Shown here piece after piece: positions 8,570-34,150 of a DNA stretch of 34,971 bases (the first letter of the stretch is position 1; each line of letters starts with the position of its first letter). Position numbers and translations under genes: made by a program. The notes beneath the pieces are model-generated. The model saw only the letters and a list, made by a program, of their open reading frames with translations. It made no database searches and had not been told where the DNA came from. Origin of the DNA: Trueperaceae bacterium (GTDB lineage Bacteria > Deinococcota > Deinococci > Deinococcales > Trueperaceae); the NCBI GenBank assembly GCA_040905465.1, contig JBBDRK010000029.1:110165-145135 (forward strand). The letters run 5' to 3'.

Positions 8570-9099
8570 GGTGGGGGCTCCTACTCTCTCTGCTGCCACG
8601 GCCTTTGACGGGACTCGGGCAGCACTTGCTGGAATTCGAGGGAGAGAGTAAGGAGACGGAGATGTTCGCGACTCCCTCGGCCGGTTGCGCCACTGGCTCG
8701 ATCCGACTCAGGCGCCCATGTTTTGGAGCCGGACTTCATAGCCTCCGAGGGGTCAAGACATTTCCCCTCCGACGAACAGCAAGGTAGCCCCGCCGATTCT
8801 TAGAACAATTAGTCGCGGATTCACGCTGTGGTCGATGGTCGCGGCGGTTCTTGCGCCTACCACGCGCCAAAGCCTCCTCGGCACGCTCACGGGAAACGTG
8901 TGAGGGCTCACGAATGTGAAAAACCCGTGTTTAGTGGCTCGTAGATGGTCGGCGAGCGTCAACGCTCGCCTCGGGCGCTCCTCGTGACTCTGTCACAGGA
9001 GCGCCCGATTCTCGACGCTATTGTGGCCCGAAGGTTCTCAACACTTCCACCACGAGGCAGCGGGCTCCGAGAGAACCGGGCACCGAGAACGAGGTATCG

Positions 9100-13597: not shown

Positions 13598-14107
13598 TCA
13601 GTCGATGAACTTCGCCATGATCAGGTTGTCCTCGTACCCCTCGCGAGTGCGGATCTGATCCCGCTCGCGACCTTCGAGAACGAAGCCCTCCTCCTGGTAT
13701 AGCCCGATCGCGCCGACGTTGCCGGCCCGCACGTTCAGGCTTATCTTGCGCACCCCCACGCCTCGCGCCCAACTGTAGCCCCCTTCGAGCAGGGCGCTGC
13801 CCACGCCCCGGCGGCGGCGCGTGGGCGAAACGGCCAGCGTCAGGGTGGCGACGTGCCGCAGACGCGCAGGCGCCAGCCGGTGCAGTTCCAACCAACCCCA
13901 CAGCTGCCGTTGATCACCGGCGACCAGCCACAACGACGATTTCGGATCGACGGCTCGGAGCCGCTGGGCGAGGCTCGCCTCGGAGGGCGGGCCATCTCCA
14001 ACGAACCAGCGCTCTTCACGGTAGATCTGCCTCTGTAACGTCACCAGCGCGGCTGCGTCGAACGGCTCGGCTCGCCTTACGACCACGTTGTCGCGGACTT
14101 CGGACAC
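13598..14107 (-). CDS. GNAT family N-acetyltransferase
   Basis: RRRGVGSALL acetyl-CoA motif, NVGAIGLYQEEGF. Start uncertain (GTG 14107 preferred; open to 14182). Confidence 0.88.
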   Translation of the reverse strand: MSEVRDNVVVRRAEPFDAAALVTLQRQIYREERWFVGDGPPSEASLAQRLRAVDPKSSLWLVAGDQRQLWGWLELHRLAPARLRHVATLTLAVSPTRRRRGVGSALLEGGYSWARGVGVRKISLNVRAGNVGAIGLYQEEGFVLEGRERDQIRTREGYEDNLIMAKFID

Positions 14108-14216
14108 GTCAACAAGTATCTCACGGCGATTCCCGACCAGGTGGAACAGCACACCGGACGCGACCTCGGGCTCGGAGCGCACCTGCTAGTGTTGGGAGGC
14201 ATGAAGGAGGCCGCCG

Positions 14217-15389
14217 TTGCGCAAGCTGATTACATCTGAATCCGTGACCGAGGGGCATCCGGACAAGCTGGCCGACCGCATCAGCGACAGCGTGCTCGAT
14301 GCAATTCTGGCGATCGATCCACACGCCCGCGTTGCCGCCGAGACCATACTCACCACCGGGCTCGCGCTCATCGCCGGCGAGATCACCACCAGCGGCTACG
14401 TGGACCTGCAGCGCATCGTGCGCGACACCGTCCGCGAGGTCGGTTACGTCGACGGTACCTACGGAATCGACGCCGATCACAGCGCGGTGCTGATAGCCAT
14501 CAACGAGCAATCACGGGACATCGCCCAGGGCGTCGACCGCGCCATCGAGTCCGACTCGGGAGACGACTTCGATCGGATCGGCGCCGGCGATCAGGGGCTG
14601 ATGTTCGGTTACGCGTCGGATGAAACCGAAGAGCTGATGCCCCTGCCGATCATGCTGGCCCACCGGCTGGCCGAGCGCCTGGCCCAGGTCCGACGCGACG
14701 CCACCCTGGCCTACCTGCGGCCCGACGGCAAGGCGCAGGTGACGGTGCTCTACGACGGCGACCAGCCGGTGAAGGTAGCGACGGTAGTCCTCTCCGCCCA
14801 GCACGGTCCAGAAGTCGAGATGGCCACTCTGCGCCGCGACCTGGAAGAGCACGTGATCCGCCGGATCGTCCCGGAATCGCTGCTCGACGGTACCCGGATG
14901 CTCATCAACCCGACAGGTCGCTTCGTGGTCGGTGGACCCCAGGCGGACGCCGGACTTACCGGCCGCAAGATCATCGTCGACACCTACGGCGGAGCGGCGC
15001 CGCACGGTGGCGGGGCGTTCAGCGGCAAGGATCCCACCAAGGTCGACCGCAGCGCCTCGTACTACGCCCGCTACATGGCCAAGAACATCGTCGCAGCGGG
15101 CCTGGCCCGTCGCTGTCAGGTTCAGCTCGCCTACGCGATCGGTGTCGCTCACCCCGTGGGGCTGTACCTGGACACCTTCGGTACCGGCACCATAAGCGAC
15201 GAACGGCTCGCGGATCTGGCCGCCAGACTGTTCGACGCCCGACCGGCATCGATCATCGCCCAGCTCGACCTCCTAAAGCCGATCTACAAGCCCACCAGCG
15301 CCTATGGGCACTTCGGCCGCGCCGGGTTCTCTTGGGAGCGGACCGACCGGGCCGAGCAGTTGCGAACCGAGGCGCTGGCGATCGCGTAA
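14217..15389 (+). CDS. metK: S-adenosylmethionine synthetase
   Basis: [42 protein letters not shown] before the TTG. Confidence 0.98.
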
Positions 15390-15417
15390 CCCGCTCCAGG
15401 GCGGACTCTTCGCGTCT

Positions 15418-15448
15418 CACGGGCAGCCTCGCTCGGGCGCTGCCCGTG
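15418..15448 (+). terminator. Hairpin after metK (10-bp arms CACGGGCAGC / GCTGCCCGTG), no U-tract
   Basis: Inverted repeat read directly. Confidence 0.4.
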
Positions 15449-15463
15449 TGTTACAACATGCCT

Positions 15464-16327
15464 ATGGCAAGAATCGTGATGGGGAATCGCGATGGCCCGC
15501 TCGCCCTCGCGCAAGCGCGAGCCGTGGTGAGCGAACTGGCCGCCGAGTGGCCCGACGTGCACCTGGTCCAGAAGACGATTCCGACCGGGTCGAATGAAAG
15601 TGACTTCCATGCGCTCTTCGCGGCTCTCGAGAAGGGCGGCGTGAACATCGCCCTCGTCGGCCTCGAACGACTCCCCGCCACGCTTCCGGAAGGCCTTACC
15701 CTTGCCGCCGTGACCAAGCGGCTCGAGCCGCGCGGCGCGCTGGTCGCCAAGGGCGTTCGCAGCCTGGCCGCGTTGGGTCCGGATGCGACTGTCGGGGTTC
15801 AATCGGAGCGCGACAGGGCGTTTCTGGTATCGGCGGGCCACGAGTTTCGGATCGAGCTGCTCGCCGGCCCGATCGACCGCAATCTGGGCCTACTGGCCTC
15901 CGGAGAGATCGACGCTCTCGTACTCCCCTGCTCGACGATGATGGCCCTCGACCGACGCGACCGCGTCGACGCCCTGCTGGATCCGGAGACGTTCGTCCCG
16001 GCCGTCGGTCAGGGATCGCTGGGGCTTGTCGTCCGGGCGGAGGACGACATGTCGTTCGAGATCGCCTACACCGTGCAACACCGGCCGAGCTTCGACCGGG
16101 TGGCCGCCGAACGCTCGTTTCAGGAGTCACTCCAAAACGAGGGGCTGGCGGTCGGCGCTCTGGCCACGGTAGCGCCCGACGGGGAACTCACTCTCCTGGG
16201 CGCCGTTGCCGCCGTCAACAGCGGTGTGCTGCAAGGGACCGTGAACGGCGAAGCACACGAGGCCGCGGAGCTCGGCCGCGAGCTGGCCCAGGATGTGTTG
16301 GAGCAACTGAAGAGCCTGCGAACCTAG
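15464..16327 (+). CDS. Hydroxymethylbilane synthase (HemC)-like protein lacking catalytic and cofactor residues
   Basis: Scaffold motifs RIVMGNR..LALAQ, LPEGLTL, EPR, PAVGQGSLG and AERSF are present; VHSLKD, SSLRR, RGN and GGC are lost. Confidence 0.85.
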   Translation: MARIVMGNRDGPLALAQARAVVSELAAEWPDVHLVQKTIPTGSNESDFHALFAALEKGGVNIALVGLERLPATLPEGLTLAAVTKRLEPRGALVAKGVRSLAALGPDATVGVQSERDRAFLVSAGHEFRIELLAGPIDRNLGLLASGEIDALVLPCSTMMALDRRDRVDALLDPETFVPAVGQGSLGLVVRAEDDMSFEIAYTVQHRPSFDRVAAERSFQESLQNEGLAVGALATVAPDGELTLLGAVAAVNSGVLQGTVNGEAHEAAELGRELAQDVLEQLKSLRT

Positions 16328-16349
16328 ACGATATAGATTGACGTAGGGT

Positions 16350-16580
16350 ATGACACAGAAGGCGTTGGCCGCCAGGCTCAAGGTGTCGTATCCGAAGGTG
16401 AACGAATTGGTGCACGGAAAGCGCGGAATCACCCCCGATACTGCTCTTCGGCTTGCTCGATTATTCCGAACCAGCCCCGAGTTCTGGTTGAACGGTCAGC
16501 TTGCTCGGGACCTGTATCACGCCATGCGATCATCGAACGCGAGCCAGATCGACGAAATAGAACCTGTCGGCACTGTTTGA
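16350..16580 (+). CDS. higA: HigA-family (XRE HTH) antitoxin, orphan and apparently N-terminally short
   Basis: TQKALAARLKVSYPKVNELVHGKRGITPDTALRLARLFRTSPEFWLNGQ. Confidence 0.8.
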   Translation: MTQKALAARLKVSYPKVNELVHGKRGITPDTALRLARLFRTSPEFWLNGQLARDLYHAMRSSNASQIDEIEPVGTV

Positions 16581-16589
16581 CGATAAGCA

Positions 16590-18638
16590 TCAACCAGCCT
16601 TCGCCTCAGCCGGCCTGTCGCTACGGATCCGGTCCGCGAGCGCCTGCGGTACCGCGTCGTAGTGGTCGACCTTCAGCGAGAACGCTCCACGGCCACCGGT
16701 CATGGAGCGCAGGTCGGGCGAGTAGGTCTGCACCTCGGCCAAGGGGACGTGTGCGCTGACCACGCTCACCGACCCCTCGGTGTCCATCCCCTGGATCCGG
16801 CCGCGCCTGGTGTTGAGGTCGCTGATCACGTCTCCGGTATAGCGGTCGGGCACCCGCACCTTGAGCAGTACGATCGGCTCCAGCAGGACCGGTCGTGCCT
16901 CCAGGACCGCCGCCTTGAAGGCGTGGCCGGCAGCGATCTGGAACGCGATGTCCTTGCTGTCAACCGGATGGTCCTTGCCGTCGAACACGACCGCCTTCAC
17001 GTCGACCACCGAAAACCCGCCGAGCGGCCCTTGGTTCAGCGCAGCCCGGATCCCTTTTTCGCACGAGGGGATGAACTGAGAGGGGATCGAGCCTCCCACC
17101 ACCTCGCTGGCGAACTGGAAGCCGCCCGAGCGGGGCAACGGTTCGACGCGCAGCGCTACATCGGCGAACTGGCCGGCGCCACCTGTTTGCTTCTTGTGCC
17201 GGTAGCGGGACTCGGCGCGTGCGGTGACAGTTTCGCGGTAAGGGATTCGTGGCTTGGAGGTGTCCATGCCGGCGTGAAAACGCTCGTCGAGTGCCCGGAT
17301 CGCCGTTTCGAGATGGACGTGCCCCATCCCCCAGAGCACCGTCTCCTGGGTCTCGGGATTGCGCTCGAGCTGCAGCGTCGGATCGGCGTCGAGCAGCTTG
17401 GCCAGCGCCTCGCCCATCCGGTCCTCGTCTGCCCGGGTTCGCGGCAAGAGGGCAAGGGCCATCACCGGCGACGGGAGCCGCAGCGGCTGCAGGCGAACGG
17501 TGGCGCCGGCGGAGCAGAGCGTATCGCCGGTGCGGATGCCGTCCAGCTTGGTGAGCGCCCCGATGCTGCCGGCCGCCAACTCACGCACCTCCGCCAACTC
17601 CTTGCCCTTGGGCAGGTAGAGATGCGCCACGCGCAACTCCTCGCCGCGCTCGCTCACCGCGATGGTGTCGCCGGCCTTCAGGGTTCCACCCAGCACCCGG
17701 ACCATCGAAACCTTCCCCATGTAGGGGTCGATGGTCGTCTTGAACACTCTGGCGCAAAAGGGTGCGTCCCGGCCTAGCGCGGGTGGCTCGCCTTCCAGGA
17801 CCGGCAGGGGCTTGTGGTCCTCGACGCGGCGCACGCCGCCTTTCATGAAGTCGAGCAGCAGGCTGACTCCCATCGCCTTGGTGGCTGAGGTCAGCAGCAC
17901 CGGCGTAAGCTCGTTGCGCCGGACCGCCGCGAAGAACGCCTCGACCAGCGCGTCGTTGTCGATTTCGGCGTCCTCCAGGTAGCGCAACATCAGGGCGTCG
18001 TCGGTCTCCACCACCGACTCCAACAACCGCTCCCGGAACTCCTCGGCCACGCCCCTGACTTCGTCGGGAATCGGGGCCTCCACCGGATGCCCGTCGGGCC
18101 ACAGGTACGCCTTCATGTGAAGCAGGTCGATGATGCCGCGGAAGTCCTCGGCCTGGCCGATGGGCACCTGGATTGCCGCGATATTCCCGATCAGGCTCGC
18201 CTCTATGTCGGCCATCGTCCTGAAGAAGTCGGCATTCTCCCGGTCCATCTTGTTGATCACGAACATCGTCGACAGCTCCCGCTCGAAGGAGCTGTTCCAC
18301 ACGCGTTCGGTACCAACTGCCACGCCCGAGACCGCCGACACCAGTATCAGCGCGGCGTCGGCCGCCAACTGCGCGCCGCGAATCTCGCCCACGAAGTCGG
18401 CGTAACCGGGCGTGTCGAGGATATTGAAACGCTCGCCCTGCCAGGTGATCGGGTGGACCGTGCTGTAGATGGAAATCTTGCGGCGCTTCTCCTCGGCCGT
18501 GAAGTCGGAGCTGGTGGTGCCTTCCTCGACCGTACCCAACGCGGCGATCTCCCCCGCCCGGTACAGCATCGCCTCCACCAGCGATGTCTTGCCCGCCCCG
18601 CTATGGGACAGAATCGCCACGTTCCGGATGTCTGACAT
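16590..18638 (-). CDS. fusA: Elongation factor G-like protein (EF-G2 type)
   Basis: G1 SHSGAGKTS, RKISI in place of RGITI, DTPG, NKMD, KKQTGGAGQF, LRSMTGGRG; ATG 18638 after AGGAG. Confidence 0.93.
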   Translation of the reverse strand: MSDIRNVAILSHSGAGKTSLVEAMLYRAGEIAALGTVEEGTTSSDFTAEEKRRKISIYSTVHPITWQGERFNILDTPGYADFVGEIRGAQLAADAALILVSAVSGVAVGTERVWNSSFERELSTMFVINKMDRENADFFRTMADIEASLIGNIAAIQVPIGQAEDFRGIIDLLHMKAYLWPDGHPVEAPIPDEVRGVAEEFRERLLESVVETDDALMLRYLEDAEIDNDALVEAFFAAVRRNELTPVLLTSATKAMGVSLLLDFMKGGVRRVEDHKPLPVLEGEPPALGRDAPFCARVFKTTIDPYMGKVSMVRVLGGTLKAGDTIAVSERGEELRVAHLYLPKGKELAEVRELAAGSIGALTKLDGIRTGDTLCSAGATVRLQPLRLPSPVMALALLPRTRADEDRMGEALAKLLDADPTLQLERNPETQETVLWGMGHVHLETAIRALDERFHAGMDTSKPRIPYRETVTARAESRYRHKKQTGGAGQFADVALRVEPLPRSGGFQFASEVVGGSIPSQFIPSCEKGIRAALNQGPLGGFSVVDVKAVVFDGKDHPVDSKDIAFQIAAGHAFKAAVLEARPVLLEPIVLLKVRVPDRYTGDVISDLNTRRGRIQGMDTEGSVSVVSAHVPLAEVQTYSPDLRSMTGGRGAFSLKVDHYDAVPQALADRIRSDRPAEAKAG

Positions 18639-18759
18639 CTCCTGGTCCTTTCCACGGTCGAGCCGACTAGACAGGAACACGGTGGTAAACAGCAGGTGGT
18701 CAACGACAGGTGATCAACGACGCTTGGGCAACGCGAGCTCTACCCCTGAATGTTCAGAG

Positions 18760-32985: not shown

Positions 32986-33399
32986 TCACAGCAAGCGAAA
33001 GAAAACGTTGCGCAACTCCTGAATATCCGAGAGATTTTCCTGAAGGACGCTATGAACGATGCGCCGATCAACCTCTAGATAATCGTGAACGAGGATATTT
33101 CGGAAACCTATGATTTTGATCCATCGCTCGCACTGCTCGGCATTGACATAACCGTGATCTTTGAGCAGGGTGGGAATATCGCGATACCTAGTGATGGTAC
33201 CTAGCCCTCTTGTGGCTACCAGATGCGCTCCCATGTCCATGAGAGCTTCCACAGCCAGCTGCAGAAATCGCTCGGCACTACCGTAACGCTCCGGCTCCTC
33301 GATGAACTCGTCGAAAGAGTAGCGTCCTAGCTTTGAGAGAATCGAAAGCGTTACGTCCAGGCTCCTCAGCCGTCGGTGGAGGATCTCCTCATCCAGCAT
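32986..33399 (-). CDS. HEPN RNase toxin (DUF86 / HepT-like)
   Basis: FRNILVHDY (RX4HXY), ER.LQLAVE; ATG 33399 overlaps the MNT end. Confidence 0.9.
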   Translation of the reverse strand: MLDEEILHRRLRSLDVTLSILSKLGRYSFDEFIEEPERYGSAERFLQLAVEALMDMGAHLVATRGLGTITRYRDIPTLLKDHGYVNAEQCERWIKIIGFRNILVHDYLEVDRRIVHSVLQENLSDIQELRNVFFRLL

Positions 33400-33799
33400 T
33401 TGACTGTAGCTGCTTGAAAATTCTTCGCTGCCTTCGAAGGTAGGGCTCGATGTCAAGATACTTGCGAACGACCTCCGAATAGGCGGTGCCACGGTCAAAA
33501 TCCTCACGAGCGTAAAGAACGACGTTGGGTGCAATTGCCGCGTAGTTGAGGAGCGCATCATCCCCGTCCAGAATGACTAGATCCACCTTGTCCAGCCCTA
33601 TACGGGTTAGGTCTCCTAGAATTTCGAGCTTTCTCTCGCGTAAACCATCGCCGCCTGGGATCAGTGCCACGTCAATATCGCTGGTTGGATTAGCCTTGCC
33701 GGATGCCCATGAACCGAACAGATAAACCGCCAATACGTCAGGGTACCGACGAAATACATCGGCCAACTCGCCCGTATCGACTGGAAGTTCCCGTACCAT
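33389..33799 (-). CDS. Minimal nucleotidyltransferase antitoxin (MntA-like)
   Basis: YLFGSWASGKANPTSDIDVA (GSX10DXD), VDLVIL; TAGACT 7 nt before ATG 33799. Confidence 0.9.
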   Translation of the reverse strand: MVRELPVDTGELADVFRRYPDVLAVYLFGSWASGKANPTSDIDVALIPGGDGLRERKLEILGDLTRIGLDKVDLVILDGDDALLNYAAIAPNVVLYAREDFDRGTAYSEVVRKYLDIEPYLRRQRRIFKQLQSNAG

Positions 33800-34150
33800 T
33801 GCCACTAGTCTAGCCCGGAAGTTACAAGTATTCCCGTTGTCTGTCCCCATGCCGAACGTCGACCTACCGCTTCCAGGGAAAGCGAATAACGTGCTGCTAA
33901 AATTCCTTCGGTCGGTTAGAACATTGTTGCTACAAACTATGCAAAAAGGTGGCGGGCGAGTCATCTTCGGCTAGTTTTTTCACCGGCAATAGCGGTAAAT
34001 CTGCTCAAATGACTGGCGGACGCCGCGTATTGCCGGCGAAAGATTCCGCCAGAAAGCGACTTTCGTTGGAACATCGTACTAACGCGTCCAGGGAATTCGA
34101 CACAGCTATATATCAGCCGTCAATCCGGAAGAAAGGCGACACCAAATCCG

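Follow-up and report, generated by a model that had tools for sequence, protein, structure and literature searches.

A HemC homologue without the catalytic residues of hydroxymethylbilane synthase is kept under purifying selection in a family of Deinococcota

Hydroxymethylbilane synthase (HemC) is regarded as an enzyme with one purpose in a textbook pathway. It is represented by the curated equivalog model TIGR00212, by the domain models PF01379 and PF03900, and by the structures 1pda and 1ah5. Arg11, Arg131, Arg132 and Arg176 of HemC (E. coli numbering, used throughout) participate in binding the carboxylates of its cofactor and substrate. In an excerpt of PMC8561815, HemC is described as having a mobile active-site lid; Asp84 is given as its catalytic residue, Cys242 as the position to which the dipyrromethane cofactor is covalently attached, and Arg149 and Arg155 as required in the chain-elongation steps. 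The subject of this study is a HemC-like open reading frame (ORF) that lies in a 34,971-nucleotide (nt) stretch of the genome of a Trueperaceae bacterium (assembly GCA_040905465.1, contig JBBDRK010000029.1, positions 110,165 to 145,135 of the forward strand). This whole stretch is referred to as the window. The encoded protein shares the homology and the predicted fold of HemC, and most of the residues listed above are gone from it. On balance it is probably a HemC-derived pseudoenzyme that has been kept for a non-catalytic role.

An analogous case is presumably HisZ, a paralogue of histidyl-tRNA synthetase that regulates HisG. It is a regulatory pseudoenzyme that resembles the HemC-like protein in concept only, with no kinship of sequence or fold. 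Full-text literature searches, which covered main texts only, found no published account of a HemC that is conserved but catalytically dead. In the excerpted part of PMC13564367, the word 'paralog' is used of HemN only.

Homology, predicted fold and active site

15464..16327, plus strand: HemC-like ORF, 287 amino acids (aa) and a stop codon; three-domain HemC fold, catalytic kit gone.

The HemC-like ORF is an open frame without an internal stop. An alternative in-frame ATG is present at 15458, two codons 5' of the ORF start, and the GC content of the region is 0.675, the same as that of the surroundings. The protein scored 96.2 bits against PF01379 and 23.5 bits against PF03900, the latter being under the model cut-off of 26. 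Its score of 139.8 bits against the curated hemC equivalog TIGR00212 fell short of the cut-off of 164. A HMMER alignment to E. coli HemC chains matched it to 1pda with an E-value of 9e-28. The ORF is a genuine HemC homologue. The original prediction, made from the letters of the window, had proposed a HemC homologue with an uninterrupted 287-codon frame, and this was borne out by the translation and by the PF01379 and TIGR00212 scores.

An AlphaFold2 model of the protein, built from a 70-sequence family alignment, reached a predicted local distance difference test score (pLDDT) of 96.1 and a predicted template-modelling score (pTM) of 0.93. In a Foldseek search of this model against the PDB, ranks 1-32 were all occupied by hydroxymethylbilane synthases. 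The best match was 1pda, with a template-modelling (TM) score of 0.91, a root-mean-square deviation (rmsd) of 1.9 Å, 289 columns and 31% identity. E. coli HemC structures as a group matched the model with TM scores of 0.90-0.91 and an rmsd of about 2 Å over 284-289 columns. All three domains are therefore retained in the model. The next matches were solute-binding proteins and LysR-type domains, with an E-value of about 1e-9 and TM scores below 0.5. The HemC-like protein shares with this class II periplasmic-binding-protein or LysR effector-domain fold, known from amino-acid receptors and OxyR, the two-lobed arrangement of domains 1 and 2 with a central cleft. It differs in the low TM score, in the lack of a signal peptide and of a DNA-binding domain, and in the presence of the HemC-specific third domain. 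In the model the N-terminus enters strand 1 directly and no signal peptide is present, so the protein is predicted to be cytoplasmic. As a result, the earlier term 'periplasmic-binding-protein-like' stands as a description of the fold class only, and not of the location of the protein.

What has become of the active site? Substitutions were read from a residue-by-residue alignment to E. coli HemC chains and canonical relatives, and a conservation profile was obtained from 119 full-length family sequences. The segments concerned are as follows.

15578..15613, plus strand: active-site lid remnant, shortened (residues 39-50); indel-rich and variable in the family.
15653..15670, plus strand: LVGLER replacing VHSxKD (residues 64-69); position 68 acidic in 92% of the 119 rows, position 69 variable.
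15794..15814, plus strand: GVQSERD replacing GTSSxRR (residues 111-117); R116 at 100%, D117 at 97% and V112 at 97% in the family.
15863..15886, plus strand: AGPIDRNL replacing RGNVxTRL (residues 134-141); positions variable in the family.
15932..15949, plus strand: STMMAL replacing AGLxRL (residues 157-162); Gly173 and Arg176 gone.
16076..16099, plus strand: QHRPSFDR, the strongest family-specific motif (residues 205-212); 90-100% per position in the 119 rows.
16133..16150, plus strand: QNEGLA, the former cofactor loop without cysteine (residues 224-229); variable, with indels, in the family.

The lid consists of 14 residues (TIPTGSNESDFHAL), compared to 22-29 in canonical relatives of type B (the native Deinococcota hemC lineage), and it has no GD...F motif. 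In the segment that replaces VHSxKD, His80 has become V, Ser81 G, Lys83 E and Asp84 R. Likewise, Thr127 has become V, Ser128 Q and Arg132 D in the segment replacing GTSSxRR, in which Arg131 is retained. Arg149 has been replaced by A, Asn151 by P and Arg155 by N in the third segment, and Gly173 by T and Arg176 by A in the fourth. The GxGC cofactor loop reads QNEG, and the sole cysteine of the protein is C156. At the same time, equivalents of Arg11 (R9), Gln19 (Q17), Arg131 (R116) and the GQG turn are kept, and the PAVGQGSLG and AERSF segments are retained. In other words, two of the carboxylate-binding arginines (Arg11 and Arg131) remain in the cluster of Arg11, Arg131, Arg132, Arg149, Arg155 and Arg176, and four have been lost. 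This pattern of loss is not due to chance because it recurs in the 119 full-length database relatives and in 12/12 family loci examined. The cofactor-loop cysteine is absent from all 12 of these loci, and the Asp84 position, an Arg here, is occupied by R, T, G, A, H, C or S among them. The alignments thus agree with the original prediction on every motif replacement that it listed (the lid, VHSLKD, GTSSLRR, RGNVxTRL, AGLxRL and the Cys loop) and on the retention of PAVGQGSLG and AERSF. Its statement that the whole active site had been rewritten was too strong, since R9, Q17, R116 and the GQG turn persist. With the lid, Asp84, four arginines and the cofactor cysteine lost, cofactor assembly and porphobilinogen polymerisation are predicted to be impossible, and the protein is expected to be catalytically inactive.

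The conservation profile separates two parts of the old site. Variable positions include the lid (41-50); 65, 66 and 69, which correspond to His80, Ser81 and Asp84; 134, 136, 139 and 140, which correspond to Arg149, Asn151, Thr154 and Arg155; 161, which corresponds to Arg176; and the Cys loop (224-229), with indels there and in the lid. Conserved positions include R9 (87%), Q17 (87%), R116 (100%), D117 (97%), the acidic residue at 68 (92%), V112 (97%), P155 (87%) and the GQG turn. Domain 3 is largely conserved, and about 80 positions in total are at least 90% conserved. According to the secondary structure of the predicted model, the QHRPSFDR motif is located at the junction of the last N-terminal-domain helix with domain 3. 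The profile suggests that the outer substrate and elongation site is no longer maintained and that the innermost cleft, the hinge and domain 3 are still selected.

Retention with and without the tetrapyrrole pathway

How widely is the gene kept? The family of the query (f1, probably Trueperaceae) was searched in 81 genomes, with G175 counted as one; here and below, genome samples are subsets of their groups. A HemC-like copy was found in 61/81 genomes, and an internal stop in none of the 61. A canonical hemC located in a hemA-C-D-B cluster, referred to as type A, was found in 64/81 genomes, plus one in which type A is split. Neither kind of hemC was found in two genomes, both of which are incomplete (67% and 78%). 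A word-indexed database search returned 289 relatives at E <= 1e-10, and the best 120 of the 289 are 50-100% identical. These share the short lid and an N-terminus of the form RIVxGNRxG...EWPD, and many are cysteine-free. Those that are named come from Trueperaceae, Deinococcales or Deinococcota metagenome-assembled genomes, and they are annotated in the databases either as 'hypothetical protein' or as 'hydroxymethylbilane synthase'. When 1.84 billion representatives were searched exhaustively with HMMER, only 19 clusters reached E <= 1e-30, and the others among the matches listed scored at most about 118 bits. One single-contig f1 genome (G165) displays type A together with two sub-threshold HemC-like matches of 112.4 and 84.7 bits, and may carry two degenerate copies.

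The ratio of nonsynonymous to synonymous substitution rates (dN/dS) was estimated by the Nei-Gojobori method, with dS near saturation in several pairs. Between the query gene and the copy in a second genome of its genus (pair G000/G132), dN/dS was 0.155 over 286 codons, with 75.5% identity and a dS of 1.17. For the same pair of genomes, type A hemC gave 0.170 and metK 0.126. In other pairs, the HemC-like gene gave 0.074 (G058/G149), 0.226 (G142/G141, both without the pathway), 0.383 (G125/G142) and 0.51 (G139/G059). Alignment of orthologues and dN/dS had been proposed as a check in the original prediction; with values of 0.07-0.51 in five pairs and 61/61 frames open, neutral decay was not seen. 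The HemC-like gene is under purifying selection and is not a decaying pseudogene. Thus homology to an enzyme without the essential catalytic residues is combined in this protein with purifying selection across species. These are two hallmarks of a pseudoenzyme, of which a non-catalytic function would be the third.

Evidence bearing on the function comes from the tetrapyrrole pathway itself. A second hemC locus in the query assembly scored 279.1 bits in the TIGR00212 search. At this type A locus, hemA-, hemC- and hemD-like frames are present consecutively, an ALAD (hemB) frame lies just downstream, and URO-D is found a few kb beyond the cluster. A further check proposed at the outset, for a canonical hemC and other hem genes, therefore turned up a separate hemC accompanied by hemA, hemD and hemB. 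ALAD (PF00490) was detected in 69/81 f1 genomes. None of the 12 f1 genomes without ALAD carries type A hemC (0/12), and 11/12 retain the HemC-like gene, including 7/7 of those that are at least 90% complete. URO-D was not found in any of the three ALAD-less f1 genomes tested (G125, G141, which is in one contig, and G142). For hemA, these three gave only weak NAD-domain matches of at most 36 bits, compared to 149-152 bits in G000 and G086. COX1, a haem-copper oxidase, is encoded by 5/5 ALAD-less f1 genomes tested, and the ALAD-less genomes probably still use haem and belong to auxotrophs.

Because ALAD is missing, these genomes would have no porphobilinogen for the HemC-like protein to act on. 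The HemC-like gene is retained without the tetrapyrrole pathway, and its persistence in 11/12 f1 genomes that lack both ALAD and a canonical hemC argues for a role independent of tetrapyrrole synthesis. The protein is therefore like HemC in sequence homology, in the three-domain fold and in the Arg11, Gln19, Arg131, GQG and AER motifs. It is unlike HemC in the absence of the lid, Asp84, Lys83, Arg132, Arg149, Arg155, Arg176 and the cofactor cysteine, in a score below the equivalog cut-off, and in the occurrence of its gene in genomes without a porphobilinogen supply.

Lineage and repeated loss of the catalytic residues

The HemC-like protein scored 160-196 bits against full-length HemC of other Deinococcota families, compared to 42-61 bits against type A copies and 47 bits against the type A of its own genome. 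Trees were built by a 'quick' method with the lid and active-site columns removed, and supports are given as Shimodaira-Hasegawa-like approximate likelihood ratio test (SH-aLRT) values. Without these trait columns the gene tree tracks the family codes. The type-B clade had a support of 99-100, and the f1 clade (100) is nested inside it. Family f3 was monophyletic (87-93), and its degenerate clade, consisting of genera g12, g14, g15 and g50 (96-97), was sister to g11 and g19 (97). The f1 clade, on a stem of about 1.0 changes per site, was sister to f2 (80-85). Type A and a third canonical hemC present in g15 clustered among HemCs from other phyla. Similarity scores and trees together place the ORF in the vertically inherited type-B lineage; the gene derives from the native Deinococcota HemC and is not a stray paralogue.

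A motif table of 69 type-B sequences and 17 site residues displayed two distinct states. All 37 sequences from genera with a single hemC locus (g10, g11, g17, g19-22) and from f4 have a full lid and a GxGC loop, and all 17 site residues are present in them except for Thr154, which is Ser in two. All 32 sequences from f1 (12), g12 (15), g14 (3) and g15 (2) have a short lid and are without Arg149, Asn151 and Thr154. Among these 32, Asp84 is kept only in g14, and a displaced cysteine is present in 14/15 g12 sequences and in no other degenerate group. TIGR00212 scans of whole families covered 61 genomes of f3, 21 of f4 and 71 of f2, with the following results.

f3, g11 (25/25 genomes) and g19 (2/2): a single canonical locus of 298-344 bits, in two pieces in G077.
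f3, g12 (26/26): a copy of 215-255 bits, accompanied by type A in 22, by a split type A in one more and by no type A in 3.
f3, g14 (4/4) and g50 (1/1): both a degenerate copy and type A.
f3, g15 (3/3): a 239-242-bit copy and the third hemC kind.
f4: one canonical copy (312-335 bits) in 17; one in two pieces on two contigs; none in 2 (70-71% complete).
f4, G234: type A (258 bits) and a 177-bit degenerate copy.
f2: one canonical copy (313-342 bits) in 70; in G248 a 204.8-bit copy only.

In most genomes searched in these three families, type B is the only HemC and is fully canonical. The G234 copy no longer has Arg11, Lys83, Asp84, Arg131, Arg149, Arg155 or the cysteine; missing from the G248 copy are the lid, Arg132, Arg149 and the cysteine. 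In the tree, the G234 copy falls within f4 (80-84) and the G248 copy within f2 (93). ALAD was not found in G248 or in the g12 genome G226. Type-B HemC thus appears, from the trees and motifs, to have been stripped of its catalytic kit on at least four separate occasions, with the frame remaining open each time. Each loss lies beside another hemC or follows loss of the pathway. A single common origin of the degenerate copies of f1 and of g12, g14 and g15 was considered and rejected. The first tree had grouped them (SH-aLRT 92), and this grouping dissolved without the lid and active-site columns. Since the groups rejoined their own families once the columns were dropped, the first grouping is read as attraction by convergent trait columns.

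The degenerate type-B copies of g12, g14, g15, g50, G234 and G248 are the closest parallel to the f1 gene. They share with it the parent lineage, a short lid, intact ORFs and the loss of Arg149, Asn151 and Thr154, and they likewise occur beside another canonical hemC or in a genome without ALAD (G226 and G248). They differ in their independent origin and in the gene that adjoins them, which is a Fur-family gene and not metK. They are also far less diverged (215-255 bits) and lie over the TIGR00212 cut-off. For example, g12 keeps Arg131, Arg132, Arg155, Arg176 (14/15) and the displaced cysteine (14/15), and g14 keeps Asp84. The milder f3 copies pass the hemC cut-off although most are without Asp84 and the lid. 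As a result, pathway reconstructions could credit haem synthesis to genomes that do not have it, as G226 and G248, which have no detected ALAD, illustrate.

Two further observations concern canonical hemC genes. The third hemC of g15 (301-339 bits; loci L092 and L093, located at G105:C13 and G031:C2) is neither type A nor type B, which suggests a separate acquisition. In the single-contig g11 genome G077, the sole hemC (G077:C1:1923127-1923989) consists of a 33-bit N-terminal fragment and a separate remainder of 298 bits, which may reflect either a sequencing error or a frameshift.

Possible roles and the gene neighbourhood

How might a HemC without its catalytic kit have come to be kept? In the proposed scenario, a second, foreign-looking canonical hemC would already have been present in a hemA-hemC-hemD-hemB cluster in the f1 ancestor. 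The native type-B copy would then have lost the lid, the catalytic Asp, four of the six carboxylate-binding arginines and the cofactor cysteine. The three-domain fold would have been kept under purifying selection since. Retention of the fold and purifying selection after catalytic loss suggest that the protein does something else. Furthermore, because catalysis was lost repeatedly and the copies stayed intact each time, the non-catalytic role probably predates the loss, as an additional function of the type-B enzyme.

The ligand-binding or regulatory role put forward in the original prediction is likewise hypothetical. The favoured, though tentative, model is that a small ligand binds in the inner portion of the former cleft and that its binding is relayed through the hinge and domain 3. 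The site could consist of the surviving R9, Q17, R116 and GQG turn together with the new, near-invariant N8, acidic 68, V112, D117 and P155. These conserved residues would line one pocket if placed by homology to E. coli HemC. Such an Arg-plus-acid site would suit a zwitterionic metabolite, and the strongly conserved hinge and domain 3 might serve to signal that it is bound or to pass it on. Another mechanism, possible and only slightly less favoured, is that the new acidic residues form salt bridges with the leftover arginines, so that the cleft is closed and domain 3 serves as a partner or scaffold surface.

Several findings weigh against a conserved non-catalytic role or limit how far it can be pressed. 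Type A alone, with no HemC-like copy, is present in 18/81 f1 genomes, and the function must accordingly be dispensable in some lineages. The G139/G059 pair, with a dN/dS of 0.51 for the HemC-like gene and 0.265 for metK, indicates that constraint is weaker in places. The long f1 stem (about 1.0 changes per site without trait columns) fits neofunctionalisation, but it fits relaxed selection as well. Some of the nodes behind the four independent losses are supported at 80-93 SH-aLRT, the single-genome cases being moderate. Finally, the mechanism is drawn from conservation patterns, and enzyme inactivity is a prediction from sequence.

An unlikely alternative, although the best surviving one, is that the protein handles tetrapyrroles or haem as a carrier, chaperone or sensor of pyrrole, porphyrin or haem, acting for instance on imported haem or in cytochrome maturation. 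The ancestral fold binds pyrroles, and the two leftover arginines could hold two propionates. Moreover, the COX1 genes of the five ALAD-less f1 genomes tested imply that haem must be obtained and trafficked. This view has to contend with the loss of the lid and of most carboxylate-binding residues, whose positions are now unconstrained, and with the 18 genomes that possess a canonical hemC and ALAD and have lost the gene. The gene neighbourhood is divided on the matter. A ResA-like thioredoxin gene and a CcdA (DsbD_TM) gene, encoding components of cytochrome c maturation, lie directly downstream on the same strand in two genomes.

L043 3568-4916, minus strand, and L005 3-1300, minus strand: ResA-like/CcdA genes in G147 and G073.

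This adjacency is restricted to 2/12 family loci and 2/8 genera. A Fur-family gene follows type-B hemC, canonical or degenerate, in 10/10 long loci of f3 and f4 and also in G234, but in 0/4 long f1 loci. The same-strand loci of this kind are L025-L028, L035-L038, L040, L041 and L096, and a Mur-ligase-like gene comes next in several of them. The arrangement looks like a conserved hemC-fur pair in f3 and f4 that would link haem and iron control.

A second alternative, distinctly unlikely and overlapping with the ligand model, is a role linked to MetK. The protein would sense or carry methionine, S-adenosylmethionine (SAM) or S-adenosylhomocysteine, or would modulate SAM synthetase. It is suggested by the upstream region.

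14217..15389, plus strand: metK (S-adenosylmethionine synthetase), conserved upstream neighbour in 8/11 other family loci.
15449..15457, plus strand: TGTTACAAC, extended -10-like element that ends 6 nt before the ATG; candidate promoter.

The placement directly downstream of metK, which the original prediction had pointed out, holds for the window, where the gap is 74 nt. Same-strand metK is immediately upstream in 8/11 other family loci, representing 6/8 genera. No terminator-like site was found between the two genes; the single one in a scan of 13900-16700 falls within metK and is no more than would be expected by chance. The conserved Arg-plus-acid cleft would also suit a ligand of the amino-acid type. 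However, metK is not the neighbour in the other 3/11 family loci, which belong to genera g2 and g9, or in any of the 17 long loci from other families, and it is a housekeeping gene whose position may simply be inherited gene order. The promoter-like element just before the ATG also means that co-transcription with metK is not required. The motif TGnTAnAnn ends 6-8 nt 5' of the ATG in 8/12 family loci, overlapping the metK stop in two, and it is found at only 13 sites when both strands of the window (2 x 34,971 positions) are counted. The HemC-like gene may accordingly be transcribed from a promoter of its own into a leaderless or near-leaderless mRNA. Leaderless mRNAs are common in this phylum. 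No sigma-70 consensus promoter was found in the 13900-16700 scan, and an Rfam scan found no riboswitch near metK or the HemC-like gene. A predicted complex of MetK with the HemC-like protein scored 0.00, which gives no verdict and counts neither for nor against binding.

Slow neutral decay of a redundant gene that is still open by chance is very improbable. The unconstrained active-site positions, the 18/81 f1 genomes that lost the gene and the single dN/dS of 0.51 would fit it. Against this, the frame is open in 61/61 carriers, with identity to the query falling to about 50% in the family, and the gene's dN/dS is no higher than that of canonical hemC in the genome pair for which both were estimated. 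In addition, some 80 positions show at least 90% conservation across the 119 sequences, and the family sequences yield a fold prediction of very high confidence. It is hardly credible that the protein retains hydroxymethylbilane synthase activity by means of an unorthodox active site: the HemC fold, the Arg11, Arg131, Gln19 and GQG equivalents and some database labels are in its favour, but the cofactor-loop Cys and an Asp84 equivalent are absent with replacements that vary among orthologues, the score is below the TIGR00212 cut-off, a canonical hemC is already in the genome, and the gene persists in 11 ALAD-less genomes, where no porphobilinogen would be available.

Other features of the window were noted in passing. 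An EF-G-like GTPase gene of 696 aa (16590-18680, minus strand) is convergent to the HemC-like gene, is found in the same place in five other family loci and is probably an EF-G paralogue. Between the two genes lies a HigA/XRE-like ORF of 76 aa (16350-16580, plus strand). Its phmmer matches were confined to the loci of the window, with none in the other loci searched, and it looks like a local insertion. A cyclic di-GMP-II riboswitch aptamer (RF01786) is present at 8670-8754 on the minus strand, as a full-length model match of 67 bits against a gathering score of 53.5. The GC content dips to 0.518 at 33001-34000, compared to 0.63-0.71 elsewhere in the window, and this stretch could be foreign DNA or an RNA gene.

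A HemC-derived pseudoenzyme with a non-catalytic role, if true, would add to the short list of pseudoenzymes that originated from core biosynthetic enzymes. The repeated, independent loss of catalysis with the protein kept amounts to a natural experiment, and it suggests that HemC has a second function, so far overlooked, across the whole phylum. It is possible, though still doubtful, that the native Deinococcota HemC has such a non-enzymatic function, for instance the sensing or handing-on of a metabolite or the binding of a partner through the hinge and domain 3. This function would be important enough for the protein to be retained after at least four catalytic losses, including those in haem auxotrophs. 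The f1 protein would represent it in pure form and may couple regulation to the status of SAM, iron or haem.

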